Below are positions 2,627 to 40,750 of a DNA stretch of 64,000 nt, piece by piece. Numbering within the stretch: position 1 is the stretch's first letter; every line of letters begins with the position of its first letter. The notes beneath the pieces were generated by a model that worked only from the letters and a program-made list of their open reading frames with translations, did not search any database and was not told the DNA's origin. Origin of the DNA: an uncultured Planctomycetota bacterium (GTDB taxonomy: Bacteria; Planctomycetota; Planctomycetia; Isosphaerales; Isosphaeraceae); assembly GCA_963845755.1 (NCBI GenBank), contig CAWJTV010000018.1:72704-136703 (forward strand), given 5' to 3'. A program made the position numbers and the translations under genes.

Positions 2627-2962
2627 ATGACAACCGTGCCCCGAGGAACCGGGTCCTGCCGCCTTGAGCTGGGAGAAGGCCCGACCGAACGCCTCGATCT
2701 CAAGGCCCGGTCGCTGGAGCCGATGCGGGAGCTTCGTCAAGCCGAAGAAGCCGTCCGGCCAGCGCGTCAAACGTGCCCGGTCGGTCCAGCCCCAAGATCA
2801 GCCGCGTTCCATCGAGGAACTCCCCCGGCCGCTGATGGCGCACGGCCTCATCACCCGCCTCCCCGATCCCGCGTGGACATCGACGAAGACGACCCGGGCG
2901 ATCCGCCTATCCCCATCGTGGGCGAGCCTTCGTCGGAAGCCATCATCCGGGAGCGGCGCTGA
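2627..2962 (+). pseudogene. Degenerate antitoxin-like gene of a vapBC-type pair
   Basis: Segments LMAHGLITRLPDPA and DIDEDDPGDPPIPIVGEPSSEAIIRERR* lie in different frames. The S-E-x-I-I-x-E-R-R ending directly before a PIN-like start is typical of VapB-type antitoxins. Confidence 0.45.
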
Positions 2963-2963
2963 A

Positions 2964-3121
2964 GCGGCGTTGTCGTATTTCGTCGATCCGAGTGCTCGGA
3001 TCCGACGCGAGGTTCAGGAAATCCGAACCACCTGGGTTCGCGGCAGCACGGCCACGGCCCGTCCAACGTGATCGACATCGCCCGGCACACCGCCGTCGAA
3101 TTCACCGGCCCCGTCGCGTGA
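2964..3121 (+). pseudogene. Truncated PIN-domain (VapC-like) toxin remnant
   Basis: LSYFVDPSARIRREVQEIRTTWVRG...VIDIARHTAVEF resembles a PIN N-terminus (YFxDTSALVKRYxxExGTxWV...ITxVE); frameshifted and stops after about 50 codons. Confidence 0.5.
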
Positions 3122-3204
3122 GGGCGTAAAGGAAAACGCTCACCCCCCTGCGGCGCATCGTCGATTCTCCACCGCTTCGGCCCGCCTCTCGGTGGTCGGC
3201 ATAC

Positions 3205-3472
3205 CGTCGAGGCCGCGACGTTTCCCTCGGACGCCCGATGGCTCAGGGAGTCTTCGAACTCGCCTTCGCCCACTTCGAGAAGACGCCGCTCGCCATGAAC
3301 GAGGATGAGCCGCTTGATCCACTGGAGGTAGGCAACCCTCGTGCGAATGCTGTAATGCAACCTCCAGACAACTTCACGGACCCGGTCGAGCAAGGTGGGC
3401 GTCTTATCTCGTCGCGTTTGGTCTGGATAAACCTTGGAAGGTCTGGTTGCAAATGTGGCCTTTCTCGATCAT
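3205..3472 (-). pseudogene. intI: Truncated integron integrase (N-terminal SAM-like domain only)
   Basis: LLDRVREVVWRLHYSIRTRVAYLQWIKRLILVHGER...LSHRASEGNVAAST matches the IntI N-terminus. Similarity ends at VAAST (3205), no catalytic domain follows, and the likely ATG (3472) is out of frame. Divergent from the attC array. Confidence 0.85.
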
Positions 3473-3475
3473 AAT
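3447..3475 (+). promoter_or_regulatory. Candidate cassette promoter Pc
   Basis: TTGCAA(3447-3452)-17 nt-CATAAT(3470-3475), pointing into the array and overlapping the 5' end of intI. Confidence 0.5.
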
Positions 3476-3499
3476 CAATCCCGTGATCCGTATTATACG

Positions 3500-3553
3500 C
3501 CCATGAGGGCGGGAAAAAAGACGCCCATGCGGGCTTCGAAACAATGGTTAGCC
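3500..3553 (+). other. Candidate attI site (core GTTAGCC at 3547-3553)
   Basis: A GTTRRRY-type core between intI and the first cassette gene, exactly complementary to the GGCTAAC of the first attC. Left boundary approximate. Confidence 0.65.
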
Positions 3554-3583
3554 CGCGCCAGGCGGCAGCAGAGGGGGGCGGAG

Positions 3584-4231: not shown

Positions 4232-4247
4232 TCTTGCGTCGTTAGGC
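4189..4247 (+). other. attC site 1
   Basis: GGCTAAC...TGCAGCGGACCCGC/GCGGGCCGCTGA...GTTAGGC. Confidence 0.95.
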
Positions 4248-4264
4248 GGCTTACCGGAGGCACT

Positions 4265-4768
4265 ATGAACTACAAGCAAATAGCCTCGCGTCTCACCGGC
4301 ATCAGTTGTCCCGTCTTCGGCGTTTCGTGGAATCCCCCGGCCACAGAGGTCGATGTCGCCCAGCGAGTCCTTTCGTTTCTCGAAGACCGCCGTGTACTCT
4401 ACAACGAGTACGAGATGGAGTTGCCTGACCATTGCATGATGTCGGTCATCGACATTCGCCGCTTTCTCACTGACGTTCTTGGCCGCCTTCCCAACAAGCA
4501 AGGGCTTCCGGCCCATCTGCGTATGATGCGTGCAGCTTGTCGTCAGTTCCTGGACAAGAATGGCGGCGAACGATTCCGCGATCACCAACCGCACATGTTT
4601 GGTGGCCCGGAGACGTGGGTTTTTGCCAGCGCACTTGGCGATCTCCGAACCACAATCGGGCTACACGTGGGAATCGTCTGCACCATGTATGGCCTTGGCG
4701 TCGAGGGCGACCTTGCGAAGATACTCCCCCCGCTGCCGAATGACGATAACGAGGAGGCCGATGCCTAA
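4265..4768 (+). CDS. Cassette 2: conserved hypothetical protein (DUF6650-like)
   Basis: GGAGG RBS; IASRLTGISCPVFGVSWNPP...FLEDRRVLY motif recalled from this family; stop lies in the attC R'' box. Confidence 0.7.
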   Translation: MNYKQIASRLTGISCPVFGVSWNPPATEVDVAQRVLSFLEDRRVLYNEYEMELPDHCMMSVIDIRRFLTDVLGRLPNKQGLPAHLRMMRAACRQFLDKNGGERFRDHQPHMFGGPETWVFASALGDLRTTIGLHVGIVCTMYGLGVEGDLAKILPPLPNDDNEEADA

Positions 4769-4822
4769 CAGGCGGTTGCAGCGGACCCGCCTGCGGCGGG
4801 CCGCTGAACCTTTTCGTTAGGC
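4763..4822 (+). other. attC site 2
   Basis: GCCTAAC...GTTAGGC with the conserved inner palindrome. Confidence 0.95.
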
Positions 4823-4842
4823 GGCAGTGTGGAGGCGACGCT

Positions 4843-5109
4843 ATGCGGTCGGCCACCCGATCTTCTCTATTCGTGGTCGCGTGGTCGGTCGGGCTGGCCT
4901 CGCGCTACGCGAACCGCGGTGATCCTCAGTGGGCCACGAAGTTGCGGGTGGCGTGCCTGTTCTTCGTCCTCGGAGGAGCCTTGCTCTGGTCGATCCAGAA
5001 GATCTCCAAGCGGCCGTGGCCTTGGTTCGTAGAAGGCATCGCACTACCGTTCGTCGCCGGCGGCTTGATCTACGGGATCGTCGCCGTACGCAACGCGTTC
5101 AGGGGATAG
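4843..5109 (+). CDS. Cassette 3: small membrane protein
   Basis: GGAGG RBS, 88 aa with hydrophobic segments, fills the inter-attC space. Confidence 0.65.
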   Translation: MRSATRSSLFVVAWSVGLASRYANRGDPQWATKLRVACLFFVLGGALLWSIQKISKRPWPWFVEGIALPFVAGGLIYGIVAVRNAFRG

Positions 5110-5113
5110 CTTT

Positions 5114-5171
5114 GTCTAACAATGCGATGCAGCGGACCCGCTGTGCGGGCCGCTGATCTTGGGCGTTAGCC
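5114..5171 (+). other. attC site 3
   Basis: GTCTAAC...GTTAGCC. Confidence 0.95.
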
Positions 5172-5183
5172 AGCGGAGGGCTC

Positions 5184-5466
5184 ATGGCCGACGATCTTGT
5201 GCACCTCCTGCTCGACATCAAGCTCGCCGGCGACGGGTTCGCATCGCCGGACGAGTTTGATCTCCGGGACCGGCTCGTTGAGCGGATCGAGCGACTGGGC
5301 ATCGGTGAGGTCGGCGGCTATGGCTCGGGAGTCGGCGGCATGGACATCTCCGTGCTCGTCGCTGATGAAGCTGAAGGTCGGGGGCGGCTGAGTCGAACTC
5401 ATGCAGGAGGTCGCGCCGGATGCTCGCTTCACCATCGAGGTACTTGCAGACGAGGATGACGGCTAA
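5184..5466 (+). CDS. Cassette 4: small acidic hypothetical protein, probable frameshift near 5390
   Basis: GGAGG RBS; the alternative frame MQEVAPDARFTIEVLADEDDG* stops at the TAA of the attC R'' box. Confidence 0.6.
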
Positions 5467-5521
5467 CGAGGCGATGCAGCGGACCCGCCTGTCGGCGGGC
5501 CGCTGATCTATGGCGTTAGCC
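5461..5521 (+). other. attC site 4
   Basis: GGCTAAC...GTTAGCC. Confidence 0.95.
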
Positions 5522-5531
5522 GGCGTGGGTC

Positions 5532-5861
5532 ATGACACACGATATCGAGGCCGAGTTGACCCTCCTTCCGACCGAGCACGGCGGGCGCCACCTTCCAGTG
5601 TCCTCCGGCTACCGCCCCCAGTTCTATTACAGCGGCCACGACTGGGACGCGGTCCATACATACGTCGATGTCACGGAAGCCCGTCCCGGCGATACCGTCA
5701 CCGTCCGGTTGTCCTTCCTTAGCCCGGAAGCGCACGCGGGCAGGATCTTCGCCGGCATGCCGTTCCTCGTGCGCGAGGGTAATCGGGTCGTCGGATATGG
5801 TCGCGTGACTCGCATCCTTGACTTGGAGGCGGCACATCGACAATCTTCGAAGGAGGGCTAA
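5532..5861 (+). CDS. Cassette 5: stand-alone EF-Tu domain 3-like protein
   Basis: Motifs GGRH, GYRPQFY, PGD and REGNRVVGYG align in order with EF-Tu C-terminal domain motifs GGRH, GYRPQFY, PGD and REGGRTVGAG. Confidence 0.85.
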   Translation: MTHDIEAELTLLPTEHGGRHLPVSSGYRPQFYYSGHDWDAVHTYVDVTEARPGDTVTVRLSFLSPEAHAGRIFAGMPFLVREGNRVVGYGRVTRILDLEAAHRQSSKEG

Positions 5862-5913
5862 CAAAGCGATGCAGCGGACCCGCTGCGCGGGCCGCTGAAT
5901 TTGGGCGTTAGCC
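5856..5913 (+). other. attC site 5
   Basis: GGCTAAC...GTTAGCC. Confidence 0.95.
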
Positions 5914-5938
5914 AGCATTCCGATTGCACGGGGGGGAC

Positions 5939-6302
5939 ATGAGGGCCGATGATGACCCGTACTTCACGGCGACCGACAAGGCCAAGCCGCATCCGCCCCG
6001 CGGCATGGCGCAGCTCGTGGTGCGAATCCCTTGGTGCCTCTCCTGGGTCGCCGTGGCGCTCCTGTCTATGCAGGTGTTCGTCTCGCCGATCATCTACCAG
6101 TCGCGGCTGGCGACCGGGGCCTATATCATGACGGAGATCGGGGCCGGGGCGGCTCGGTGCCATCTCGGCCTTCGGCGTGCTGGCCATCCGACTGGTGCGT
6201 TCAGGAGGCTCGCCCGATCCGTACACGAGGAGACTGGCTTGGTCGATACTGAGGGGCCTGCTGGTTGTCATCCTCATAATGACGGGGCTCGAGGTCGCCT
6301 GA
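5939..6302 (+). CDS. Cassette 6: small membrane protein, probable frameshift near 6150
   Basis: ATG at 5939. A shifted frame gives LGAISAFGVLAIRLV...SILRGLLVVILIMTGLEVA* ending just before the attC. Confidence 0.55.
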
Positions 6303-6312
6303 GGGAGGCCCC

Positions 6313-6372
6313 GGCTAACAAGGCGATGCAGCGGACCCCGCTGCGCGGGGCCGCTGATCTGGGGCGTTAGAC
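6313..6372 (+). other. attC site 6
   Basis: GGCTAAC...GTTAGAC. Confidence 0.95.
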
Positions 6373-6381
6373 GGTGGGGCA

Positions 6382-6717
6382 ATGAGCGTCAGCGACGATC
6401 TTGACCGGTTGTTTCCAGGCCACCGCTCGCCCGAGCGGGTTGCCGATTGGGAGGCGCTCGAGCAGCGCCTTGCCTACGGGCAGTCCGTCACTGGTACGGT
6501 CGTCGTCAAATCCCCGTTCGGGGCGTGGGTCGACCTCGGCGTCGGTTTCCCTGCCCTGCTGGAGATCATCGTCATTGTGGGCCTGACGCCCGAGAAATAT
6601 CGTGCGGGTGACTGGTGCCCTGTCGGTAGCGAAGTCTCGGCGTTTGTCGGTGGATTCCGCGATGACTCTCATCAGATAGGGCTGTGGCAGGTGCCGGTCG
6701 GCCATGGCCGCGTCTAA
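6382..6717 (+). CDS. Cassette 7: stand-alone S1 (OB-fold) domain protein
   Basis: WEALEQRLAYGQSVTGTVVVKSPFGAWVDLGVGFPALL...VGSEVSAFV...QIGL follows the ribosomal protein S1 repeat pattern (G-x-x-V-x-G-x-V...FGAFVDLG...VGDEV...ISL). Confidence 0.75.
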   Translation: MSVSDDLDRLFPGHRSPERVADWEALEQRLAYGQSVTGTVVVKSPFGAWVDLGVGFPALLEIIVIVGLTPEKYRAGDWCPVGSEVSAFVGGFRDDSHQIGLWQVPVGHGRV

Positions 6718-6770
6718 CTCCGCGTTGCAGTGGACCCGCCTGCGGCGGGCCGCTGAACTTTCCGTTAGGC
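6712..6770 (+). other. attC site 7
   Basis: GTCTAAC...GTTAGGC. Confidence 0.95.
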
Positions 6771-6789
6771 TGCGGAGGCGCAGCGGGTT

Positions 6790-7107
6790 GTGGAGTGGCT
6801 CGTGCCATGGCATTCTGTCGCTGATGATCCAGCCTAGGTGGAGGGCATGGTACGTGAGTTACTCCGCGAGCTTGCTGAAGGTCACCCGCTCTACCGCCTC
6901 CCGGTGCGGACGTGGGGTCGCAGGCAGGACCGCGACGACGTGCTGTTCGCCATAGAAGATGGTAGCGGGCGCGTCGCGGTCGTCCATCTGGCGTGGACTT
7001 GGAATCCACCCGATCCTCCGCCCTGGCCATGGACCATGCTGTATCGAAGCTTCGATGCGTGGATCGTCGAGGGTGTGCGCCGCGATTACGACGAGTTGCA
7101 TGCCTAA
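6790..7107 (+). pseudogene. Cassette 8: hypothetical protein with an in-frame TAG at 6835-6837
   Basis: GGAGG RBS and GTG at 6790 give VEWLVPWHSVADDPA*VEGMVRELL..., in frame with ORF 6838..7107, which ends in the R'' box. Confidence 0.6.
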
Positions 7108-7159
7108 CCTGCGGTGGCAGCGGACCCGCTCCGCGGGCCGCCGATCTTGGGCGTGAGGT
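7102..7159 (+). other. attC site 8 (R' mutated to GTGAGGT)
   Basis: GCCTAAC...GCAGCGGACCCGC/GCGGGCCGCCGA...GTGAGGT. Confidence 0.85.
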
Positions 7160-7179
7160 GGCGACAGGAGACACTCGGA

Positions 7180-7208
7180 TTGTGGCTCGCGCGGGCGTGA
7201 TGTACGCT
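7180..7208 (+). promoter_or_regulatory. Candidate cassette-internal promoter (leaderless transcript)
   Basis: TTGTGG-17 nt-TACGCT ending 6 nt before the ATG at 7215; no RBS between them. Confidence 0.4.
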
Positions 7209-7214
7209 GAGTGA

Positions 7215-7509
7215 ATGAGCCCGTCGATTCGAGAGGTCAACCCTGGCGAATTGCGGCTCCCACCGAGTCGGGCCAGCGGGGCCGACCCATGGAAGCTCCA
7301 CCAGCAGATCCGACAATTTGGAGCGTCGAGGAACGGGATGCCCCCGATCCTTGTACGAGGATCCGGACGGCATCTTGGAGATCTCCGACGGGGTCACCCG
7401 CGCCACCCGGATCGCCAAGCTGGCACCAGACCAGACAGTCCCGATCGTGGTGATCGGTCAGTATCGACGAAGCCGGGCAGGCTCCCCTTGCGTGAGGGAC
7501 CGGTTATGA
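7215..7509 (+). CDS. Cassette 9 gene A: ParB/Srx-like small protein, frameshift near 7352
   Basis: Joining frames gives ...GMPPILVYEDPDGILEISDGVTRATRIAKL..., resembling the ParB/Srx core PI-x-V...I-x-DGxxR; overlaps the next gene via ATGA. Confidence 0.55.
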
Positions 7510-7730
7510 GCGAGAGCGATACCCGTGTGGAATTGTTCGCCGCCCTCCAGGAATTGTCCGAGGTCATCCCCGAGATGCGGTCCGGCCAGCTCGTGGCGGC
7601 GGTCGGGGAGCTGTGCGCCGATCTCCACGGGCGCGGCCTCTGGGACGCCGCCGACGGCGAGTTGCTCAAGGCCGTATGGCTGTTCCGCCGCAACTATGAG
7701 GCGGCTCTTACCCCGAGCCGGGACGATACC
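7506..7730 (+). CDS. Cassette 9 gene B: small helical protein, 3' end split by IS110 (continues 9305-9346)
   Basis: MSESDTRVELFAALQELSEVIPEMRSGQLVAAV...; removing the IS restores ...SRDDTVGGSPFSARSLRT* with the stop 1 nt before attC9. Confidence 0.65.
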
Positions 7731-9300
7731 TTCTATGAACCCGCTGAAGTCAAGCCCCCCGACTGATTTTTTCCGGGCGTCCCGCGGGGCGCGGACAGCG
7801 ATCGCTCCGAGTCCGACAGCGTATGTCCTGGCTCCCCGTTTGCGGGGAGCCAGGACACACGCTGTCTCTCGTTCTCCAGACAACGCCGGTGGTCCTGCGA
7901 TCGACACTCTCCTTGTCCTTCTCGAAGAACTCCCGAGACCGCGGCTGGTGGCTTCGTCACGCGCGTCGCGCCTGCCAGGAGGCCGCGACCACCTTCTCTC
8001 CGTGTGGATCCTCACTCAAGGGACCGAGCACCCGTTACTCTGTTCGTCCGCGGACGACTCCGAAGCCAGGTGTGGGGACAAACCCATCTAACTCACGGTC
8101 GGCTGCCGCCGACCAGGCGCTTTCCGCCCCCTCGGGGACCTCGCCCTGCTCCAGGTATCGCCACAGCGCGATCAACAACTTGCGGGCCAGGGCCACAATC
8201 CCCACCTTGCGCCGCCGCGTTGCCCTCGCCGAACCGACGCTGATACCACTGGCTCAAGGCGCTGTGGAGCTGCCAGTGCAGCCAGCCCCAGGCGATCTCC
8301 ACCGCCATCCACCGCAGACGACAGTTCCCCGCCTTGCTGATCCCTTGCTCGCGCTGACCGTCGCCACTGGCGTACGGCGTCGGGGCCAAACCGGCGAGGC
8401 TCGCCAGCTCGCGGCGGTTCTGGATCTGCCGCCAGCCGAAGAACTCGCGGACGAACCGCGTCGCGCTCATCGGACCGATCGCCTTGAGGTTCAGCAGCAG
8501 CCGCGGCTTCTCGACGTCGGCCGTCGCGTCGTCGCGGAACGCTCGCCGCTGGGCGTTCTCCAGGTCGCGCACCTGGCGGTCCACCAGTGTCCATCGCTTG
8601 AACTCGCGGCGGATGCGGGCACTCAGCTCGGCCGGGACCGGCCTGCCGTCCCATTGGCGAAGTTGGCCGAGGCGTTCCGGCAACGGGTCATCGACCACGA
8701 CGTCAAGGCCGAGGTTGGCGAGGAGTCCCTTGATGCGATTGGAGTGCTCGGTGCGCTGGCCCTTGACGGCGATCAGCTCGCGGTGGGGCTGACGGCGGTC
8801 CTCATCGTCGGGGGTGGGGATGCGGACGACGCTCCAGAGCTTGTGCTCGCCGCCGTGATAACGGATCAACATCGTCAGGAGCTTGCCGACGTCGAGCCGA
8901 TCGCTCTTGGCGCGACGCGCGCGGCGGTTGACCTCGATGCTGGCGGCGTCAACGACGAGGTTCGTGACTGCGTGATGTTGGAGATCGCGATGGAGCCAGA
9001 AGCCGTCGCGGCCGGCCTCGTAGCAGGAGACGAGGGGGACATCGCCGGAAAGGGCGAAGCGTTGCCTGGCGAGGAGGATCTCGCGCTGGAGACCTTCGAG
9101 ATCGCGAGCGGGGATGGTGCGGAGCCGCGGCTTCTGGGCCATGGCGGTGGTGAAGGCGAGGTTCAAGGACGTCCAGCCGAGGTCGAAGGCGAGGAAGAGC
9201 GTGTTCGAGGCGGTGGTGGTAGGATGAAGGTCGTGGGTCGCTGACATGGTAAGACTCCGAGGTTGAGAGGGATTTGGTGAAAGACCTCTTCTGAGGAGCT
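7731..9300 (-). mobile_element. IS110-family insertion sequence, copy 1
   Basis: Ends defined by similarity to copy 2; flanked by TACC at 7727-7730 and 9301-9304. Confidence 0.9.
8035..9247 (-). CDS. IS110-family transposase/recombinase, frameshift near 8215
   Basis: DEDD motifs LAFDLG, YEAG and KSDRLD, plus GLAPTPYASG and GISKAGN. The conserved KVGIVALARKLLIALWRY tail is in a shifted frame. 3' end approximate. Confidence 0.9.
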
Positions 9301-9347
9301 TACCGTCGGCGGCTCACCGTTTTCAGCCCGGTCGCTCCGGACATAGT

Positions 9348-9397
9348 ATCTAACCAGGCGATGCAGCGGACCCGGCCCGCTGAGCTTGACGTTAGGC
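9348..9397 (+). other. attC site 9 (short)
   Basis: ATCTAAC...TGCAGCGGACCCGGCCCGCTGA...GTTAGGC. Confidence 0.9.
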
Positions 9398-9408
9398 GGC
9401 TTCGAGCG

Positions 9409-9654
9409 ATGGCTCGTGAAGACGTGAAGCTCGACATCCTGCGGCTGGTCGCCCGCCATGACGGAGAGTGGTTCTGGTATCACATCGATCGCGCACTCAG
9501 CGGCGCTCGCATCGGATGCGTCGGCCCCTTCACGGCCGAGATCGGTGATTTGGAGTCCGCAGGACTGATCGAGACCCGCCCGAACTTCGCGCTTGGCGAT
9601 CAGGGGCGTTACTGGCGAACTGAGGCGGGACGCGCGGCGGTCGCGGACGCCTAA
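9409..9654 (+). CDS. Cassette 10: small winged-helix-like protein
   Basis: 81 aa; LESAGLIE...RYWRTEAGRA resembles a wHTH wing; stop in the R'' box. Confidence 0.6.
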   Translation: MAREDVKLDILRLVARHDGEWFWYHIDRALSGARIGCVGPFTAEIGDLESAGLIETRPNFALGDQGRYWRTEAGRAAVADA

Positions 9655-9746
9655 TCGGCGCGGCAGGGGACCTGAACCGCCACAGCACTTAAGGATGCGA
9701 ACGAACTCATCTCGGTGGCCCCGGACACTGGCCCAAGTGGTCATGC
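9649..9746 (+). other. Degenerate long attC site 10
   Basis: GCCTAAT...GGCAGGGGACC...GCCAC/GTGGC...GTCATGC in the expected position; both core boxes mutated. Confidence 0.55.
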
Positions 9747-9754
9747 GGCTTCCA

Positions 9755-9782
9755 TTGCTGGTCGGTCCGATCGCGGTATAAT
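9755..9782 (+). promoter_or_regulatory. Promoter of the TA cassette
   Basis: TTGCTG-16 nt-TATAAT followed by a GGAGG RBS and ATG at 9799. Confidence 0.65.
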
Positions 9783-9798
9783 GTTGGGGGAGGTGTCC

Positions 9799-10018
9799 AT
9801 GATCCAGACAGTTGAAGCGGTGGTCAACGCGACCGGCCACGTGCGATTGCTCGGCGAAGTGCGAGTCGAACGCGCCCCGTCGGGCTTTGGTGACCGTGCT
9901 CGAAGAGCCGGCCGCTGTACCCGGTGAGGCGGCGCTGCTGGCCGAGGCGGCCTTGGCCGCCGATTGGTCGAGGCCGGAGGAGGATGCCGCGTGGTCGTAC
10001 CTTCAGCCGGCGAAGTAG
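9799..10018 (+). CDS. Cassette 11 antitoxin, frameshift near 9868
   Basis: MIQTVEAVVNATGHVRLL...RRALVTVLEE...LAADWSRPEEDAAWSYLQ; the acidic W-x-x-PEEDxAW tail overlaps the toxin start. Confidence 0.7.
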
Positions 10019-10335
10019 TGCTGGTCCCGTTCCCCTTCTCGGACCTGTCGCAGTCCAAGTTGCGGCCGGCAGTCTGCCTGGCCCCCGCCGGCCGGGGCGA
10101 CTGGGTGCTCTGCCAGATCACGAGTAGTCCCTACGGCGATCCCTCGGCGGTGCCGTTGGACGCAACGGACTTCACCACGGGCGGGCTGCTGGTGGCGAGT
10201 TTCGCCCGGCCGGGTAAGCTCTTCACCGCCAGCGTCGGCCTCATGGTGAAATCGGTCGGCATTCTTTCTCCCGCTGCGCTGGCCCGGGTACTTTCGGTGG
10301 TCGCTGCACTCTTCCAGCCACCTTCGGGGCCCTGA
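9991..10335 (+). CDS. Cassette 11 PemK/MazF-family toxin
   Basis: GEVVLVPFPFSDLSQSKLRPAV...LCQITS motif; GGAGG RBS before the GTG. Confidence 0.9.
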   Translation: MVVPSAGEVVLVPFPFSDLSQSKLRPAVCLAPAGRGDWVLCQITSSPYGDPSAVPLDATDFTTGGLLVASFARPGKLFTASVGLMVKSVGILSPAALARVLSVVAALFQPPSGP

Positions 10336-10336
10336 C

Positions 10337-10395
10337 GCCTAACGAGGCGATCCAGCGGACCCGCTGGCGCGGGCCGCTGATCTTTAACGTTAGGA
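10337..10395 (+). other. attC site 11
   Basis: GCCTAAC...TCCAGCGGACCCGC/GCGGGCCGCTGA...GTTAGGA. Confidence 0.95.
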
Positions 10396-10414
10396 AGCAA
10401 GAAAAGGGGCTGGC

Positions 10415-10750
10415 ATGAAAGCCTTCGTGGTGTCTCTCAACGGCCAACCGTTCGTGACAGCCGGGGTCGGTGATGATGGCGTCCTCGCCACAGGGCTCAG
10501 CTGGGTCGGTGGCTCCCCACCACGTCCCGTCGAGGGCCGGCTAGATTTTCGCGTGGGCGGCGTTGACGGGCGCACTGGGGAGCACATCAATTGGTCGGTC
10601 CCCGAGATCGGCGTTGGCGACGAGATCACGATCAAGGTCATCGAGACGGCTCAGGTGACGCCTGAAGACGAGCGCTACCGCTTCGACGAGTCGAACTGCC
10701 ATATCGGCGTCAGGGGCGAAGAGACCGAGGCGGGAGAAGAGGAGCCTTGA
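10415..10750 (+). CDS. Cassette 12: hypothetical beta-rich protein (no attC of its own)
   Basis: 111 aa ORF directly after attC11; IS110 copy 2 begins 4 nt after its stop. Confidence 0.7.
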   Translation: MKAFVVSLNGQPFVTAGVGDDGVLATGLSWVGGSPPRPVEGRLDFRVGGVDGRTGEHINWSVPEIGVGDEITIKVIETAQVTPEDERYRFDESNCHIGVRGEETEAGEEEP

Positions 10751-10754
10751 GTTC

Positions 10755-12323
10755 TTCTATGAAACCGCTGAAGTCAAGCCCCCCGACTGATTCTTTCCGG
10801 GCGCCCCGCGGGCGCGGACAGCGATCGCTCCGAGTCCGACAGCGTGTGTCCTGGCTCCCCGCAAACGGGGAGCCAGGACACACGCTGTTTCTCGTTCTCC
10901 AGGCAACGCCGGTGGTCCTGCGATCGGCACACTCCTTCCTCTTGCGAAAGAACTCCCGGGACCGCGGCTGGTGGCTTCGTCACGCGCGTCGCGCCTGCCA
11001 GGAGGCCACGACCACCTTCTCTCCGTGTCGGTCCTCATTCCAGGGACCGAGCACCCGTTACTCTGTTCGTCCGCGGACAACTCCGAAGCCAGGTGTGGGG
11101 ACAAACCCATCTAACTCACGGTCGGCTGCCGCCGACCAGGCGCTTTCCGCCCCCTCGGGGACCTCGCCCTGTTCCAGGTATCGCCACAGCGCGATCAATA
11201 ACTTGCGGGCCAGGGCCACAATCTCCACCTTCGCGCCGCGCGTTGCCCTCGCCGAACCGACGCTGATACCACTGGCTCAAGGCGCTGTGGGGCTGCCAGT
11301 GCAGCCAGCCCCAGGCGATCTCCACCGCCATCCACCGCAGACGACAGTTCCCCGCCTTGCTGATCCCTTGCTCGCGCTGACTGTCGCCACAGGCGCACGG
11401 CGTCGAGGCCAAGCCGGCGAGGCTCGCCAGCTCGCGGCGGTTCTGGATCTGCCGCCAGCCGAAGAACTCGCGGACGAACCGCGTCGCGCTCATCGGACCG
11501 ATCGCCTTGAGGTTCAGCAGCAGCCGCAGCTTCTCGACGTCGGCCGTCGCGTCGTCGCGGAAGGCACGCCGCTGGGCGTTCTCCAGGTCGCGCGCCTGGC
11601 GGTCCACCAAAGTCCAGCGGTCGAACTCGCGGCGGATGCGGGCACTCAGCTCGGCCGGGACCGGCCTCCCATCCCATTGGCGAAGTTGGCCGAGGCGTTC
11701 CGGCAACGGGTCATCGGCCTCGACGTCAAGGCCGAGGTTGGCGAGCAGGCCTTTGATGCGATGGGAGTGCTCGGTGCGCTGACCCTTGAGGGCGATCAGC
11801 TCGCGATGGGGCTGGCGGCGATCTCCGTCGTCGGGCGTGGGGATGCAGACGATGCTCCAGAGCTTGTGCTCGCCGCCGTGATAACGGATCAACATCGTCA
11901 GGAGCTTGCCGACGTCGAGCCGATCGCTCTTGGCGCGGCGGGCGCGGCGATTGCCCTCGATGCTGGCGTCGTCGACGACGCAGTTGGTGACGGCGTGGTG
12001 TTGGAGATCGCGATGGAGCCAGAAGCCGTCGCGGCCGGCCTCGTGGCCGGAGAGCACGGGGGCGTCGCCGGGGAGGGCGAAGCGGTCTCGGGCGCAGAGG
12101 ATCTCGCGCTGAAGGGCGTCGAGATCGCGAGCGGGGATGGTGCGGAGCCGCGGCTTCTGGGCCATGGCGGTGGTGAAGGCGAGGTTCCAGGACGTCCAGC
12201 CGAGGTCGAAGGCGAGGTCGAGCGTGTTCGAGGCGGCGGTGGTAGGATGAAGGTCGTGGGTCGCTGACATGGTAAAACTCCGAGGTTGAGAGGGATTTGG
12301 CGAAAGACCTCTTCTGAGGAGGT
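10755..12323 (-). mobile_element. IS110-family insertion sequence, copy 2
   Basis: Similar but not identical to 7731..9300 over its whole length; flanks GTTC and TAGA do not match each other. Confidence 0.9.
11058..12270 (-). CDS. IS110-family transposase/recombinase, frameshift near 11235
   Basis: Same motifs as copy 1, with several substitutions (HEAG, TPCACG). 3' end approximate. Confidence 0.85.
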
Positions 12324-12373
12324 TAGAGCGCCCCACCGTTGGGTGGCACCCACTCGAAGCCTGCTCCCGAAGA

Positions 12374-12412
12374 ACCCCCTGAACCCCCCCTGCGAAGGGG
12401 GGGTTCGGGGGT
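12374..12412. repeat. C-run/G-run palindromic REP-like element
   Basis: ACCCCCTGAACCCCCCCT-GCGA-AGGGGGGGTTCGGGGGT; related to 17224-17308. Confidence 0.7.
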
Positions 12413-12746
12413 GAGTTCGCAGCGCCTCAGGGCGTGCGCAACGCAAGAGTTAAGCGCTCTAGCTGGCGGCCCGCGGAGGTGGCTGCGTGGGCGGGTTGCT
12501 GGTGGAGCTCAACTTCAGGACCATAGTCGAGGTCTTCAAGGCAGCCTGGCGACATGACTTCCCCAATTCCCCGTGAGGTCCCCGGCGCGCAGATGTCATT
12601 GAGGTCGCCTCGCAGCCAATGCCCTCACATCCCCTCTGGGACCGCGAGATCGACGGCCGTTAGTTGTCCCGGGGTTCGACGGTCGTTATTGTAACGGGGA
12701 GAAGTCGCCTCTCACGAAGGGAGGTGACGCTCGAGAGACTGCGAAA

Positions 12747-13151
12747 ATGCATTTGGAGTTTGTCGTAGTCGGTGTTCCCATCTCAAACCAGTCGGCAGGA
12801 ACTGCCGCCCTTCAAGCCTGGCGGACGGCGGTAGAGACCGAAGTAAAGAAGAACTGGACTGGTACTCCACTGACCGGCAGGCTGAAGGCGGTTATCATCA
12901 ACTTTCACACGGGTGATAAGCCATCCCTCGACCTCGACAACATGACGAAACCGATACTGGACGTCATGCAGCAAATCGTCTACGACGATGACCGCCAGGT
13001 TCGGCAGGCCGAACTCACACACGTCCGGATCGACGCGCCGTTCGTCTTCGTCGGGGCCTCGAAACTTATCGTGGCCGCCGTGCAAGCCGGTAATGAGTTT
13101 GTGTACGTGAGAATAGAGGACCCGATCGATCCATTCCCATTACCGACGTGA
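12747..13151 (+). CDS. Cassette 13 gene A: RusA-like endonuclease
   Basis: EFVVVGVPIS N-terminus and DLDNMTKPILDVM...YDDDRQV, matching the RusA motif DxDNxxKxxxD...DD. Confidence 0.8.
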   Translation: MHLEFVVVGVPISNQSAGTAALQAWRTAVETEVKKNWTGTPLTGRLKAVIINFHTGDKPSLDLDNMTKPILDVMQQIVYDDDRQVRQAELTHVRIDAPFVFVGASKLIVAAVQAGNEFVYVRIEDPIDPFPLPT

Positions 13152-13155
13152 TACC

Positions 13156-13839
13156 ATGGATTACGAACAAGAGTTGAATCGTTTGGCAGACATTTATCGA
13201 GGTCACGGCTACGACGTGACCGTCCGGCCTGGCCCGGATCAATTGCCTCCGTTCGCCAGAGATTTCAGGGTGGAAATCCTCGGCCGCCGCGGAGCCGAGG
13301 GTGTGCTCGTTGCAGTCAGGAGAAACCGCGACGAAGTTGCAGCCGACAGCGACATGCAGCGGTATGCTGAGACCACGGGAGCTCAGCCTGGGTGGCGATT
13401 CGATTTCGCCATTCTCGAGTCGGAGCAGCCGAATGCCAGAGAGGTGCGGGGAGCGAAGGAGCTTTCGCAGGACGACATCAACAAGTCACTTGAACAGGCA
13501 CGGGAACTCAGCCGAATGGGCTTCACAGGGTTTGCGGTCGTCGCAGCTTGGGCCACGTTGGAAGCGGCCATGCGGATGCGGCTCCGGGCTCTCGGACAGG
13601 AAGCGGGTTGGGGAAGCATCCCCAGGCAGATGACAAGAGAACTCTATTCCGCAGGCGCGTTATCCCCAGACGAATTCCGTCGAATTGAGAGCGCGTCCCA
13701 GCTCAGGAACCAGATCGTTCACGGCTTCGCGTCGCAGCCCGCTGAGCCAGGCGATTCTGAGGCTGCGATGGTCGAAGTTCTGAGCGGCGTCGCTCATCGC
13801 CTCGTTAATGAATCCCAACCCGCAGCGCAATCCACTTGA
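13156..13839 (+). CDS. Cassette 13 gene B: REase-like (AHJR-like) N-terminus fused to a HEPN-like domain
   Basis: N-terminal LADIYRGHGYDV...VLVAVR...GWRFDF; helical C-terminus AWATLEAAMR...LRNQIVHG with an RxxxxH motif. Confidence 0.65.
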   Translation: MDYEQELNRLADIYRGHGYDVTVRPGPDQLPPFARDFRVEILGRRGAEGVLVAVRRNRDEVAADSDMQRYAETTGAQPGWRFDFAILESEQPNAREVRGAKELSQDDINKSLEQARELSRMGFTGFAVVAAWATLEAAMRMRLRALGQEAGWGSIPRQMTRELYSAGALSPDEFRRIESASQLRNQIVHGFASQPAEPGDSEAAMVEVLSGVAHRLVNESQPAAQST

Positions 13840-13853
13840 GCCGACTACCTATC

Positions 13854-13911
13854 GGCTAACCCGCGGTTGCAGCGGACCCGCTGCGCGGGCCGCTGAACCT
13901 GGGCGTTAGCC
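13854..13911 (+). other. attC site 12
   Basis: GGCTAAC...GTTAGCC. Confidence 0.95.
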
Positions 13912-13928
13912 GGCGGGGGAACGTAATC

Positions 13929-14243
13929 ATGAAAGCGATCTCGTCCGTGCTGCTCATCCTGGCAGTCGCCTGCTCCGGCACGGGGCAAGAGCCGGAGGAC
14001 GGCTACGTCCCGGACGATGGATTCGTCCCAAGCAAGGAAGTTGCTATCAAGATTGCCGTCGCGGTCTGGGAGCCGATCTACGGCGCGGAGAAAATCGCCA
14101 AGGAGAAGCCCTACCGTGCGACCCTGGCCGACGGCGTTTGGACCGTCGAGGGATCGCTATCGAAGGGCAGCAACGGCGGTGTGGCCCTCGCCAGGATCGC
14201 GAAGAAGGACGGCCGCATCCTTCGCGTCACCCACGGCAAGTGA
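13929..14243 (+). CDS. Cassette 14: NTF2-fold immunity protein (YbbC/YhhH-like) with signal peptide
   Basis: GFVPSKEVAIKIAVAVWEPIYG...KPY...WTVEGSL...GGV...IAKKDGRILRVTHGK signature. Confidence 0.8.
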   Translation: MKAISSVLLILAVACSGTGQEPEDGYVPDDGFVPSKEVAIKIAVAVWEPIYGAEKIAKEKPYRATLADGVWTVEGSLSKGSNGGVALARIAKKDGRILRVTHGK

Positions 14244-14272
14244 CTCTGAACCGGGGCGCCATCGAGGGTCGC

Positions 14273-14329
14273 GCCTAGCCTTGCGATGCAGCGGACCCGC
14301 TTTGCGGGCCGCTGAGCTTTGTGTGAGGT
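14273..14329 (+). other. attC site 13 (both core boxes mutated)
   Basis: GCCTAGC...TGCAGCGGACCCGC/GCGGGCCGCTGA...GTGAGGT. Confidence 0.85.
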
Positions 14330-14335
14330 GGCGTA

Positions 14336-14683
14336 GTGAGAGCGTCCACGCGACAACGTGACCATGGACTCCCGCTCGTCCTTCGTTGGTCGCGGGACGT
14401 CCTGGGAGCGTTCGTCACTCTGGTAGCCCTCGTGTTCACGACCCGGAACTGGGGGACGCCAGCGGCGGCAGTCAACTGCGCCCTCGCTGTCGCCGGGGCC
14501 GTCGGGCTCCGGCTGCGATCGTGGCCGGTCCTCGCAGCCTTGTCTGGTGCGTATCTCGGCGCCATCGCGGGGACCTCCATGGGGGACTCGGCGGTAAACG
14601 CGCCGGTTCATGGTCTGTTGCTCGCCATCTGCGGGACGGTTGTGGGATATGGCTTTCAAATGATGGAGCGGGGACCGGCCTAA
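14336..14683 (+). CDS. Cassette 15: small membrane protein
   Basis: Hydrophobic 115 aa ORF ending in the R'' box; start uncertain. Confidence 0.6.
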   Translation: MRASTRQRDHGLPLVLRWSRDVLGAFVTLVALVFTTRNWGTPAAAVNCALAVAGAVGLRLRSWPVLAALSGAYLGAIAGTSMGDSAVNAPVHGLLLAICGTVVGYGFQMMERGPA

Positions 14684-14736
14684 CGAAGCATGGCAGCAGC
14701 CCCACTGCGCGGGGCCGCTGATCCTGGGCGTTAGGC
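14678..14736 (+). other. attC site 14
   Basis: GCCTAAC...GGCAGCAGCCCC/GGGGCCGCTGA...GTTAGGC. Confidence 0.9.
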
Positions 14737-14758
14737 GGCGGAAGGGGAGGGTTTGGGG

Positions 14759-15397
14759 ATGCGTTCGTTCTGGGGCGAGTTCGTTCGCGCGCGTGCCTTC
14801 TGGGTGAGCTACGTCAGCGCGGGGGTGGATTTCGTCGGTTGCGGCAGCCTCCAGGCTGACCAACGGCTGCTCTGGGAGGAGCCGACGTGCGGGGCGACGC
14901 TGATGTTCCGCTTCCCCGACTCCCACCGGCTGCGCCTGGATGTTGCGGCGGGGGAGCATAAGCTGCAACTGCTGCACCCCGACTACGACGAGCCGCAACT
15001 TGTTGGCACGATGGACTGTCACCAGATGAGCGATCTCTTCCGGTGGGACGAGTTCCGGGCGGTCACCCGGCACCTGGCCACGACTTCCGGCCCGACGTCG
15101 GCGCACGAACTGTTGCTGAGTTTCTACGTCGCCGTCACCGAGGATTGTGCGGATGAGCATGCGGTGGTGCTGCGGCGGACCCTGGAAGCGTCGGAGGTAT
15201 TTGCCGTCCCGGAAATCGAGCATATCTTGGCCTATACGCGTCGGGTTGCGGTGCGTCGGGATTTCCGATGGGTCCACACCCCGGGGTTGGGGTGGCTGGC
15301 AGAGGGCCGCGACACCTACTGCATGCGGCACACGCGGGGTGAGCTCGACTTCGATCGGTTCAGCCGGTTCCTGGGAGCGCTGGCCAGCGACGCGTGA
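14759..15397 (+). CDS. Cassette 16: hypothetical protein, possibly immunity-protein-like (Imm19-like, weak)
   Basis: GGAGG RBS and fills the cassette; H...FRWDEF, LLL and W...GW...Y-x-x-R motifs loosely recall Imm19. Confidence 0.55.
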   Translation: MRSFWGEFVRARAFWVSYVSAGVDFVGCGSLQADQRLLWEEPTCGATLMFRFPDSHRLRLDVAAGEHKLQLLHPDYDEPQLVGTMDCHQMSDLFRWDEFRAVTRHLATTSGPTSAHELLLSFYVAVTEDCADEHAVVLRRTLEASEVFAVPEIEHILAYTRRVAVRRDFRWVHTPGLGWLAEGRDTYCMRHTRGELDFDRFSRFLGALASDA

Positions 15398-15491
15398 CCT
15401 GCGCTGCAACGGAACCGGACCGCGGCTGCGGCTTTCTGGTAGAATCGAGGCAGATGCTCGGCGGGCCGGGCTGTTGAGCTTGTTGTTACGC
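15392..15491 (+). other. attC site 15 (long, divergent type)
   Basis: GCGTGAC...TGCAACGGAACCGG...CCGGGCTGTTGA...GTTACGC. Confidence 0.7.
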
Positions 15492-15553
15492 GGCGGCCAA
15501 TCTACCGACAGTGGTGATGTCGCGGGGGACCACGCCTGCAGTCGGGGGCTACT

Positions 15554-15901
15554 ATGCAAGAATTCGGGCCCTACTTCCTTCTTGCCTCAATGCTCGGTTC
15601 GCTCCTCGCTCCTCTCCTCATCGGAATCTTACCGAGGGAGGCAGCCAGGCGTGTGGTGGTATGGGCTCTCCGCATCTTGGTCCCGACCTTCCTCGTAAGT
15701 TTCATCTCGCTCGCGGCACAAGGGGATCGAGGCTTCCTCAGCAACTCGCAATCCGTGCTAACGGGCTCCGTCTTCTTGATCCTGTCCGTAGGCCTCGGCT
15801 ACTTCGTATCATGGCTGCGTCACACATTGTCGAGCCGAGGTATTCAAGGCTCCCGGGGTGGGAAAATCAAGGCGGGACTATTGGACGATGAATTGGCCTG
15901 A
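15554..15901 (+). CDS. Cassette 17: three-TM membrane protein
   Basis: Three hydrophobic segments; stop in the next R''-like box. Confidence 0.65.
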   Translation: MQEFGPYFLLASMLGSLLAPLLIGILPREAARRVVVWALRILVPTFLVSFISLAAQGDRGFLSNSQSVLTGSVFLILSVGLGYFVSWLRHTLSSRGIQGSRGGKIKAGLLDDELA

Positions 15902-15943
15902 CCTGCGGTTGCAGCGGGCCGCTGCAACCTTCACGATTGGAGG
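15896..15943 (+). other. Collapsed or degenerate attC site 16
   Basis: GCCTGAC followed by the hairpin GGTTGCAGCGG-G-CCGCTGCAACC; no clear R' box. Confidence 0.55.
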
Positions 15944-15951
15944 CTCTCTCG

Positions 15952-16215
15952 ATGGTCCGTCAACTCTTCACTGTCGAGGATGTCTTCACGATCCGTCAGC
16001 GTGGCACCATCCTCGTGCCGGGAATCGTGCCCGAGGGCGATGAGTGGTTCCATATCGGCGACGGCTTGTGCCTGCGCCGCCCCGATGGGTCGGAAGTTCG
16101 GACGGCGATCGATGGCATCGACTTCTTCAACGTCAGCGAGCACGGTGCTTACGCGATCGTGGTGCCCTTACCTGCATCCGATGTGCCACTTGGCATCGAG
16201 GTCTGGTCGGCATAG
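15952..16215 (+). CDS. Cassette 18: stand-alone EF-Tu domain 2-like protein
   Basis: GGAGG RBS; FTVEDVFTIRQRGTILV...IGD...TAIDGIDFF aligns with EF-Tu LPIEDVFSISGRGTVVT...VGE...STCTGVEMF. Confidence 0.7.
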   Translation: MVRQLFTVEDVFTIRQRGTILVPGIVPEGDEWFHIGDGLCLRRPDGSEVRTAIDGIDFFNVSEHGAYAIVVPLPASDVPLGIEVWSA

Positions 16216-16221
16216 GCTGGA

Positions 16222-16282
16222 GCCCAACAATTGGTTGCAGCCGACGCGCCTGTCGGCGGGCCGCTGAACCTTCGCGTTAGGC
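16222..16282 (+). other. attC site 17
   Basis: GCCCAAC...TTGCAGCCG...GGGCCGCTGA...GTTAGGC. Confidence 0.9.
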
Positions 16283-16333
16283 GGTGGGAGTCTTGGAGCA
16301 TCCTTGAGGCGCTGGTGTCGATCGAGGGGTCAT

Positions 16334-16876
16334 ATGCCTTCATCCGTCCGCGGCCTGCTGGGGGCTGTCCCCGTCGTGATGATCGGTTGCCTCGCCATCC
16401 GGGGCGCTGCTCTGCCGGCTCCCTGGGTCATCACGACCGCGGCGTTCTTGTTCGGCCTCCCCGCATTACTCAGTCCCTCGGCTCGGCCCGAGTGGCGATC
16501 CGCCTTGATTGCGTTCGCCTGGGCCGGCTCGCTTTACCTCGTGCTGTGCTTCGGCCCCGGCCTCGACCTGTGCGAACTCGAGTACCTCCCCTCCACGGCG
16601 GCACTCAATCGCCTCTTCCCGGTGATATTCACAGAAGGCTATCTCCAAGACCTGGCGGTCGAGCGTGAAGGCTGCACTTGCGACCGATGTGTCACTGATG
16701 TCCGGGACGGCCTCCGTAGCGGATTTCTCCAGGCAGGCCACATCGTCACCGCGTTGCTCGCGGCGGCACTCTCTGGGCTGGCAGCTTGGGCGCTGTCATC
16801 GTATCGTGGGGTGGGCGTACGAAAAGAGGCCCGGCCTAACCCACGGTTGCAGCGGACCCCTGCCGCGGGCCGCTGA
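16334..16876 (+). CDS. Cassette 19: multi-TM membrane protein
   Basis: GAGG RBS, four hydrophobic segments, reads into attC18. Confidence 0.65.
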   Translation: MPSSVRGLLGAVPVVMIGCLAIRGAALPAPWVITTAAFLFGLPALLSPSARPEWRSALIAFAWAGSLYLVLCFGPGLDLCELEYLPSTAALNRLFPVIFTEGYLQDLAVEREGCTCDRCVTDVRDGLRSGFLQAGHIVTALLAAALSGLAAWALSSYRGVGVRKEARPNPRLQRTPAAGR

Positions 16877-16891
16877 CCTCGAGCATTAGGC
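16834..16891 (+). other. attC site 18 (R' ATTAGGC)
   Basis: GCCTAAC...TTGCAGCGGACCC/GGGCCGCTGA...ATTAGGC. Confidence 0.85.
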
Positions 16892-16971
16892 CGACCGTCG
16901 CTGGGCCGTGGTGTTGCGTCCGCCTGACGCCACCGTTACGCTGGGGCCGCGTGAGTCGGTGGGCGACGGCG

Positions 16972-31861: not shown

Positions 31862-31888
31862 CGCAGCCTGCGGACACAACCCAAGAGG

Positions 31889-31968
31889 GATTCGAGATTC
31901 GAGATTCCCGATTCCGGATCCAGAAATCGTTCCTTTGGGAATCTCGAATCGGGAACCCAGGAATCCCC
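31889..31968. repeat. Short GATTCGA-type heptamer tracts in inverted arrangement
   Basis: GATTCGA GATTCGA GATTCCC GATTCCG ... GGGAATC TCGAATC GGGAACC. Confidence 0.7.
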
Positions 31969-33814: not shown

Positions 33815-33867
33815 CGCAGGATCTCGGTCCCGATCGATCGCGAGAGCGGGGATGAATCGATTCAGCA

Positions 33868-40725: not shown

Positions 40726-40750
40726 GAGGATGTGGAAGAATCGGATGGAA

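Follow-up and report, generated by a model that had tools for sequence, protein, structure and literature searches.

Free-standing EF-Tu-like and S1-like cassette genes in a planctomycete integron array, including a candidate orphan immunity gene related to EF-Tu domain 3

Results

Three single-domain genes in one integron array

The window analyzed here is a 64,000-nucleotide (nt) stretch of DNA from an uncultured planctomycete of the Isosphaeraceae (GenBank assembly GCA_963845755.1, contig CAWJTV010000018.1, positions 72,704 to 136,703 of the forward strand), and its subject is an integron array in which three separate genes each encode one domain resembling part of the translation machinery, namely domain 3 of elongation factor Tu (EF-Tu), a repeat of ribosomal protein S1, and domain 2 of EF-Tu, hereafter D3-like, S1-like and D2-like (Table 1). 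The attC-like array spans positions ~3400-16900 and repeats a unit of 55-60 nt about 15 times on the plus strand, in the form CTAAC..GCAGCGGACCC..GGGCCGCTGA..GTTAGGC; a strict attC pattern has nine matches in the window versus none expected from 100 shuffles, and ~15 sites between 4191 and 16890 are recognized by eye and with looser patterns.

An earlier note, made from the sequence of the window alone, had pointed to three single-domain open reading frames (ORFs), and all three are present on the plus strand, encoding proteins of 109, 111 and 87 amino acids (aa). Domain calls by profile and structure searches agree that the first is D3-like and show that the note had exchanged the other two, the ORF at 6382-6717 being S1-like and that at 15952-16215 D2-like. 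The note had also taken each gene for a cassette, which is borne out for the D3-like and S1-like genes, both bounded by attC sites on either side with their stop codons inside R''; the D3-like ORF begins 13 nt past the GTTAGCC of its upstream site and ends in a TAA that is part of the CTAAC of the following one, and the S1-like ORF is placed between the sites at 6315 and 6714 in the same manner. The D2-like gene has a good attC only on its 3' side, with a degenerate hairpin on its 5' side and a GGAGG 9 nt before its ATG.

Each cassette belongs to a conserved family of free-standing proteins of 85-125 aa, with invariant residues of its own that differ from those of EF-Tu and S1; the source annotations of the relatives sometimes read "elongation factor Tu" or "ribosomal protein S1". 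A word-index protein search returned free-standing relatives of similar length in 139 of 143 D3-like candidates, 69 of 80 S1-like candidates and 18 of 20 D2-like candidates, and a metagenome scan added 197 further D2-like stretches, in keeping with the note's claim that these are mobile genes and not debris of tuf or rpsA.

Table 1. Genes and recombination sites of the array, in window coordinates
Feature	Position	Strand	Evidence
Integron integrase remnant	2851..3393	-	N-terminal SAM-like domain only (residues 2-64); Pfam Phage_int_SAM_4, E 1.9e-10
attC 5' of D3-like cassette	5463..5521	+	Repeat families D5, D6, D11; pattern match; sequence inspection
Stand-alone EF-Tu domain-3-like protein gene (109 aa), proposed orphan immunity protein	5532..5861	+	Pfam, family profile, context of relatives
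attC 3' of D3-like gene	5858..5913	+	Repeat families; pattern match; sequence inspection; stop codon of the gene within its CTAAC
attC 5' of S1-like cassette	6315..6372	+	Repeat families; strict and looser patterns
Stand-alone S1-like OB domain gene with leading helix (111 aa)	6382..6717	+	Family profile versus ribosomal protein S1
attC 3' of S1-like gene	6714..6769	+	Repeat families; looser patterns
IS110-family transposase gene inserted in array	8093..9247	-	Pfam Transposase_20, E 1.7e-14; repeat families D4, D10, D14
PemK/MazF-type toxin cassette gene	9964..10335	+	Pfam PemK_toxin, E 8.4e-7; small ORF 9715-9927 precedes
Second IS110-family transposase copy in array	11116..12336	-	
Imm-NTF2-2 immunity cassette gene (known polymorphic-toxin immunity family)	13929..14243	+	Pfam PF15631, E 2.4e-21
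Short degenerate attC-like hairpin 5' of D2-like gene	15897..15945	+	Repeat family D15; sequence inspection
Stand-alone EF-Tu domain-2-like beta-barrel gene (87 aa)	15952..16215	+	Family profile, AlphaFold, Foldseek
attC 3' of D2-like gene	16225..16284	+	Repeat families; looser patterns; sequence inspection

The D3-like protein and its family

The D3-like ORF matches Pfam GTP_EFTU_D3 (PF03143) with 42.9 bits against a cut-off of 27, over profile positions 6-105 of 106, and it is far from a whole EF-Tu, which has a GTPase domain and domains 2 and 3 in ~394 aa; the NCBIfam EF-Tu models give it 50-52 bits against cut-offs of 449-522 and match it only with their positions 304-395. A family profile built from 42 relatives matches residues ~302-402 of EF-Tu in the PDB with an E value of 3e-19, covering the whole domain, and all 59 of its PDB matches are EF-Tu chains. 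The family is collinear with EF-Tu domain 3 throughout at ~40% identity and shares with it the motif EGGR..P...GYRPQFY...REG.R.VG.G, but it differs in being free-standing, with neither G domain nor domain 2, in having an invariant DWDA motif and a four-residue insertion (SP..HvGr) of its own, in carrying Val where the Thr of the EF-Tu segment REGGRTVGAG aligns, and in being rare and horizontally mobile. The window's protein matches its own family profile with an E value of 1.3e-53 versus 3.7e-16 for the tuf gene of the same genome, and so the cassette is no recent fragment of tuf.

The D3-like family is represented in at least the Planctomycetota, Myxococcota, Acidobacteriota, Chloroflexota, Verrucomicrobiota, Pseudomonadota, Bacteroidota and Bacillota. 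The matches of the D3-like profile on plasmids are mostly genuine tuf genes. An unannotated, intact D3-like ORF (L167, 5884-6312) is carried by plasmid NZ_CP026227.1 of Aeromonas sp. ASNIH7 (IncU, KPC-2), where it belongs to a class 1 integron, with intI1, aac(6')-Ib4 and a LysE-family cassette preceding it and ISKpn6 following it, and the same match is found on a second Aeromonas plasmid, NZ_CP026123.1; these copies indicate that the family has reached the mobile integrons of conjugative plasmids. At 17 Bacteroidota loci (within L048-L072, for example L052, 9971-10678) the D3-like domain continues into a further C-terminal domain of ~130 aa; this addition is conserved (..DFNYWD...FATWH..LTGKIIV), nothing in Pfam matches it, and one gene of this fused kind follows an Rhs toxin (L063, below). 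At another locus (L041, 9965-10336) the D3-like gene stands directly after a DUF1549/DUF1553 (PSCyt2/PSD1) gene and before its DUF1501 partner.

D3-like genes behind a toxin domain with a predicted ADP-ribosyltransferase fold

The neighborhoods of D3-like genes were surveyed with Pfam over 140 proteins at 17 Bacteroidota loci and 106 proteins at 40 other loci (L056, L073 and L074, being partial or weak matches, were left out of the neighborhood counts), and they proved mostly variable, with two exceptions. At L059 a distance of 15 nt separates the D3-like gene from the end of the preceding gene, which encodes a 2857-aa Rhs protein (SpvB, TcdB_mid, FG-GAP and RHS repeats), and past the D3-like gene come an orphan C-terminal fragment of an Rhs protein and a gene for DUF6188; at L063 the D3-like gene starts within an ORF for an Rhs C-terminus, upstream of which is an Imm11 gene. 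This arrangement is the usual toxin-immunity order of rhs loci. At L062 a SUKH immunity gene lies directly upstream of the D3-like gene.

The last ~100 aa of the Rhs proteins at L059 and L063 are homologous, a single profile matching both with E values of 4.6e-31 and 2.5e-21, and they share the motif LYRxVSxxE...GK.F...DA..WG...LDGIGPA, in which the Arg of LYR, the Glu, and the Asp of LDGIGPA are invariant. The domain has 143 representatives at E values up to 1e-3 among 1.84 billion clusters, and it sits at the C-terminal end of nearly all proteins listed, of 84-2857 aa, as polymorphic-toxin domains do. Against Pfam no family was common to more than one of 36 members, and against PDB sequences nothing came below an E value of 0.045; two Atlas leads, Tox-ART-HYD1 (0.88) and TreTu_C (0.84), both fell under the 0.9 line and were not adopted.

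The predicted model of this toxin domain is of high confidence, with a pLDDT of 92.5 and all five models above 91. In a structure search independent of Foldseek, nearly all of the 50 listed matches were chains of the ADP-ribosyltransferase (ART) superfamily, with Z values of 9.7-5.1, and included diphtheria toxin (Z 9.7 and 8.1), RES toxin, ParT, RhsP2, exotoxin A, TreX, PARPs and DarT; TreTu aligned over 83 residues with Z 7.3 and a root mean square deviation of 2.5, and ranked ninth in Foldseek, which agreed on the fold with matches to Tpt1, TreTu and ExoA. The domain as modeled thus has an ART fold.

The reverse search, with the toxin profile, found the domain in three of 391 genomes of the phylum, at loci that had not been chosen for a D3-like gene. 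A gene of ~100 aa directly follows the toxin domain at all three, and it is D3-like at two of them (L164 and L166; hidden Markov model (HMM) E values of 3.5e-6 and 3.1e-4, hhalign probabilities of 88% and 78%); at the third, L165, the toxin ORF has a weak pretoxin-HINT match. A D3-like gene thus lies directly downstream of the toxin domain and on the same strand at four of the five toxin loci (L059, L063, L164 and L166), two of the four having been found without bias, and the window has no such arrangement. A complex prediction for the toxin domain with the D3-like protein, run without controls, scored 0.13, where the mark is 0.32, and counts neither for nor against the pairing.

The S1-like and D2-like families

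The S1-like ORF by itself falls below the cut-off of Pfam S1 (PF00575), with 14.6 bits against 22 over residues 32-56 only. Its family profile, built from 38 relatives, matches ribosomal protein S1 in the PDB with an E value of 1e-17, the best single repeat having an independent E value of 1.5e-7 over profile positions 19-103, and it also matches the isolated S1 domains 5ie8 and 2khi (E 8e-5); the likeness to solved S1 repeats is significant over the whole OB domain. The protein aligns to repeats 3 and 4 of ribosomal S1, including the helix between them, and differs from S1 in being free-standing, in having LLEI where S1 repeats have GLLH or GLVH, and in an added conserved DWCP motif. The window's genome holds three copies of the cassette, all within attC arrays, of which the copy on contig C41 encodes an identical protein and that on contig C39 (C39:450217-450547) is frameshifted. 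No S1-like match was found on plasmids.

The D2-like ORF matches no Pfam family at E values up to 1, PF03144 included. The 20 best PDB matches of its family profile are all to residues 213-290 of EF-Tu, with weak E values of 0.06-1.3. One of five AlphaFold models of the protein is confident (pLDDT 88.2, the others 52-60), and the ten best Foldseek matches of this model, on which it superposes, are EF-Tu domain 2 without exception (TMq 0.70-0.74, probability 1.0), at E values of 0.014 or higher, no match reaching E 0.001. The family motif LFTVEDxFxI..RG matches PVEDVFTITGRG of EF-Tu, with VEDxFxI..RG in common, which supports homology, and the free-standing D2-like protein is likely, though not proven, to be homologous to EF-Tu domain 2. 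A second copy of the cassette in the window's genome lies at a contig end (C34:800240-800503), with an in-frame TAA at codon 4 and an attC following; this copy and the frameshifted S1-like copy on C39 are decaying. One D2-like gene (L135, 10001-10279), like the D3-like gene at L041, stands directly after a DUF1549/DUF1553 (PSCyt2/PSD1) gene; such gene pairs are very numerous in these genomes, and both adjacencies may therefore be chance.

Absence of linkage between the three families

The earlier note had treated the three cassettes as one candidate system. The families co-occur nowhere else in the loci and genomes searched. No D2-like or S1-like gene was found at 60 D3-like loci of other genomes, with flanks of up to 10 kb on each side, in a search for which the window itself served as positive control, and no D3-like or S1-like gene was found in 80 D2-like loci, 428 kb in total. 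With the window's genome set aside, samples of ~400 genomes of the phylum gave three with a D3-like gene, two with an S1-like gene and none with a D2-like gene, and no genome holds two of the three families. The three cassettes are not a conserved linkage, and their meeting here is accordingly best seen as a property of the genome's large cassette pool.

Sites resembling attC were sought beside the relatives with a detector that finds 10 of the 15 window sites and 3 of 300 background windows; it was tuned on the attC type of this genome and may miss others. Of 39 stand-alone D3-like loci, 5 have such a site next to them, versus 1 of 104 random windows, and of 74 D2-like loci 3 do, one doubtfully, versus 0 of 77 random windows; the 17 fused Bacteroidota forms have none. 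By eye, the D3-like copies of planctomycete genomes G157 and G033 have attC on both sides, and the G383 copy does not.

The remainder of the array and its genome

The array retains only the N-terminal SAM-like domain of an integron integrase, and the catalytic integrase domain PF00589 has no match anywhere on the contig (C18), from which we conclude that the array has lost its own recombinase; the intact intI of a complete integron is absent from the window. Beyond the genes of Table 1, Pfam assigns cassettes of the array to DUF6650, to RusA and an AHJR-like nuclease, and to several small membrane or unknown proteins. The RusA-like resolvase and the AHJR-like gene, which has a restriction-endonuclease fold, form a single cassette at 12747-13839, an unusual pairing for a cassette. 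Two IS110-family elements, ~89-95% alike, lie near attC sites at 7730-9345 and 10754-12440, and there are more in the C39 array; IS110/IS1111 elements that target attC are known.

The genome of the window comprises 14.3 Mb in 49 contigs and is 88% complete. Four other arrays of the same attC type lie on contigs C3, C39, C41 and C47, with an integrase-domain match adjoining the C3 array (C3:161545-162147), and one of the genome's other arrays carries a DUF2314 gene. Reverse transcriptase/maturase genes of group II introns lie within the arrays at C41:22495-24558 and C47:10557-12381, the C47 copy being split across two frames; group IIC introns associated with attC are known. An Rfam search of the whole window gave no match. 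Far outside the integron, at 40722-40939, ~30 tandem units of 7 nt (GATTCGA/GATTCCG) were found, with short copies at 31888-31927 and 33850-33885.

Discussion

We regard the three cassettes as independent of one another and the D3-like gene as an orphan immunity gene, whose family is the cognate partner of the ART-fold toxin domain, a joint reading to which we give an even chance of being correct. The window's genome is without a match to the toxin domain, which is why its D3-like cassette would be an orphan copy. That the putative immunity protein copies EF-Tu domain 3 suggests a toxin that engages EF-Tu and that a mimic of EF-Tu would block. In this mechanism a new toxin C-terminal domain of ~100 aa, with an ART fold and borne by Rhs and other delivery proteins, would be bound by the D3-like protein in place of EF-Tu, which would keep the toxin off its target or docking partner, and a cell with the D3-like cassette would survive neighbors that inject this toxin. 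The earlier note had proposed that all three proteins act as decoys, among others for toxins, and for the D3-like family the members placed behind an ART-fold toxin domain lend this indirect support; no toxin partner was found for the D2-like and S1-like families. Decoy for an EF-Tu-engaging toxin is a fair term for this reading of one of the three cassettes, a reading that stands at about even odds.

Several observations weigh against an immunity role founded on mimicry of EF-Tu. The toxin domain lies near a D3-like gene at only 2 of 60 D3-like loci, most members of the family being alone or in unrelated neighborhoods, and it was found in none of five genomes reached through D3-like loci, in a search without a positive control, nor in the window's genome at its 88% completeness. 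Since the toxin is rarely near or in the same genome, the D3-like family could have another main role and serve in immunity only in some lineages. The toxin-linked proteins at L164 and L166 are distant members of the family, and the gene after the toxin domain at L165 has an EGGR..P motif but an hhalign probability of only 1% (E 0.049). Most Z values of the toxin domain lie below 8, a range that the tool calls common, and an ART fold alone shows no function. For the other two cassettes, the only toxin or immunity hint of the S1-like family is an Imm53 gene two genes off on a single 1.9-kb contig, and a Pfam survey of 74 neighbors in 28 of the 80 D2-like loci (those of at least 3.3 kb after removal of 12 near-duplicates) found a heterogeneous set with no toxin upstream; an all-against-all BLAST of ORFs neighboring D2-like genes gave only clusters from the gene's own overlapping frames and from near-duplicate contigs. 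Finally, the nearest functional precedent, TreTu, modifies Asp21 in domain 1 of EF-Tu and not domain 3 (PMC9825190).

A comparator with a toxin of similar size is this same TreTu, the ART toxin of the Rhs-main protein of Salmonella Typhimurium, which is described there as ADP-ribosylating EF-Tu (PMC9825190; PDB 7zhl and 7zhm) and as being neutralized by TriTu, an immunity protein termed a beta-lid. The two systems are alike in that a very small ART-fold domain (~110 aa) closes an Rhs protein and the next gene downstream encodes a small, all-beta immunity protein. They differ in that the toxin domains are without sequence similarity (there is no Pfam TreTu_C match, and only the subthreshold Atlas lead) and in that TriTu is not detectably related to EF-Tu domain 3, the PDB matches of the D3-like profile being EF-Tu throughout. 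Rhs toxins binding EF-Tu are also reported in two preprints of 2025-26.

The D3-like family can also be compared with the orphan immunity genes catalogued by Zhang et al. 2012 (PMC3482391), which are common. There, as here, immunity genes encode small single-domain proteins directly after toxin C-terminal domains, and more often they stand alone or in mixed immunity islands, with the toxin not in the same genome. The same catalogue lists DUF2314 as an immunity family, so that the arrays of the window's genome carry at least two recognized families of this kind, DUF2314 and Imm-NTF2-2; the Imm-NTF2-2 gene and the PemK/MazF-type gene bear out the earlier note's report of immunity-like and toxin-antitoxin cassettes in the window's array. 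None of the terms "EF-Tu", "EFTu" or "elongation factor" appears in the 300,000 characters of the catalogue that were searched, and the D3-like family thus differs in being absent from the catalogue to that extent, as well as in having an integron cassette as its carrier. Systems in which an immunity gene follows the C-terminal domain of a polymorphic toxin are well known, and the members described here are new as far as the searches reach. Among titles and abstracts we found neither an EF-Tu-like immunity protein nor cassettes of this sort, and subscription journals could hold one.

The D2-like and S1-like cassettes, behind which stand large, conserved and unnamed families as well, might likewise act as mimics or immunity genes. 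The wider proposal, that integron arrays stock "target-mimic" immunity genes, with D3-like proteins neutralizing mini-ART toxins by passing for EF-Tu domain 3, and D2-like and S1-like proteins doing the same to further toxins whose partners are EF-Tu domain 2 and ribosomal protein S1, appears doubtful to us at present, with perhaps one chance in a handful. Under this proposal the mini-ART family would attack or dock on EF-Tu domain 3, and free-standing copies of host-protein domains would point to the targets of uncharacterized toxins.

An alternative that dispenses with conflict is that these small proteins modulate translation, perhaps under stress or in dormancy, by binding RNA or tRNA through surfaces inherited from EF-Tu and S1. 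Each family does retain a segment of its parent protein, EGGR..P...GYRPQFY of EF-Tu in the D3-like family, LFTVEDxF as the counterpart of the EF-Tu PVEDVF in the D2-like family, and the FGAWVD strand typical of S1 repeats in the S1-like family, and most members have no toxin neighbor. However, the families are patchy and rare (0-3 of ~400 other genomes of the phylum), they have crossed between phyla and entered integrons, among them a plasmid-borne one of class 1, as is more to be expected of accessory conflict genes than of translation factors, and the D3-like family is tied to the toxin domain at four of five toxin loci, so that we think this alternative unlikely.

The proposal of the earlier note in its full form was that the three cassettes jointly soak up RNA-phage replicases, Doc, toxins of contact-dependent inhibition (CDI) or type VI secretion systems (T6SS), or antibiotics that need EF-Tu or S1. 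It has in its favor that all three proteins mimic components used by the Q-beta replicase and by several toxins, that the genes lie within 11 kb of one array, and that toxin-antitoxin and immunity cassettes stand beside them. It is not supported as a three-part system, given the lack of co-occurrence at 0 of 60 and 0 of 80 loci and in any second genome sampled. The suggested link to phages found no backing either: PADLOC-DB 2.0 (5027 models) returned no family at E values up to 1 for any of the three proteins, and a scan of viral contigs for the D3-like and S1-like families turned up nothing S1-like and, for the D3-like family, just two weak matches (32% identity over 62 residues). A decoy for Doc is not supported, the D3-like family having Val in place of the Thr of REGGRTVGAG that we take to be the target of Doc, and neither is a role against Lit, which cleaves domain 1 of EF-Tu, a domain absent from all three proteins. 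A sponge expressed from a distal, promoterless cassette would moreover have to compete with EF-Tu, one of the most abundant proteins of the cell, and we consider a joint decoy system highly improbable.

Sequestration by D2-like or D3-like proteins of antibiotics that target EF-Tu is likewise very unlikely. Thiopeptides bind EF-Tu domain 2 and elfamycins bind at the interface of domains 1 and 3, the relatives come mostly from metagenome contigs (an origin in soil or peat, where antibiotics of this kind are made, is an unchecked guess from record names), and the D3-like cassette of the class 1 integron sits beside resistance cassettes, but the neighbors at the surveyed D3-like and D2-like loci include no biosynthetic or resistance genes, and the elfamycin site also needs domain 1. 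That the cassettes are functionless, decaying fragments of tuf and rpsA captured when the cassettes formed is scarcely credible, because in spite of the broken C34 and C39 copies and the remnant integrase, the families are conserved as complete free-standing ORFs with invariant residues of their own across many phyla, and the D3-like protein is far closer to its family profile than is the tuf of its genome.

We return to the D3-like cassette as an orphan immunity gene and to what would follow from it. If the D3-like protein is an immunity protein derived from the target, it would form with the mini-ART domain and its 143 representative clusters a toxin-immunity pair missing from the catalogue searched, and would be a clear case of immunity through mimicry of the target, in which the target of a toxin could be guessed cheaply from the ancestry of the immunity gene. 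For the organisms concerned, it would mean that chromosomal integrons, and one clinical class 1 integron at the least, keep orphan immunity genes of interbacterial warfare in circulation.

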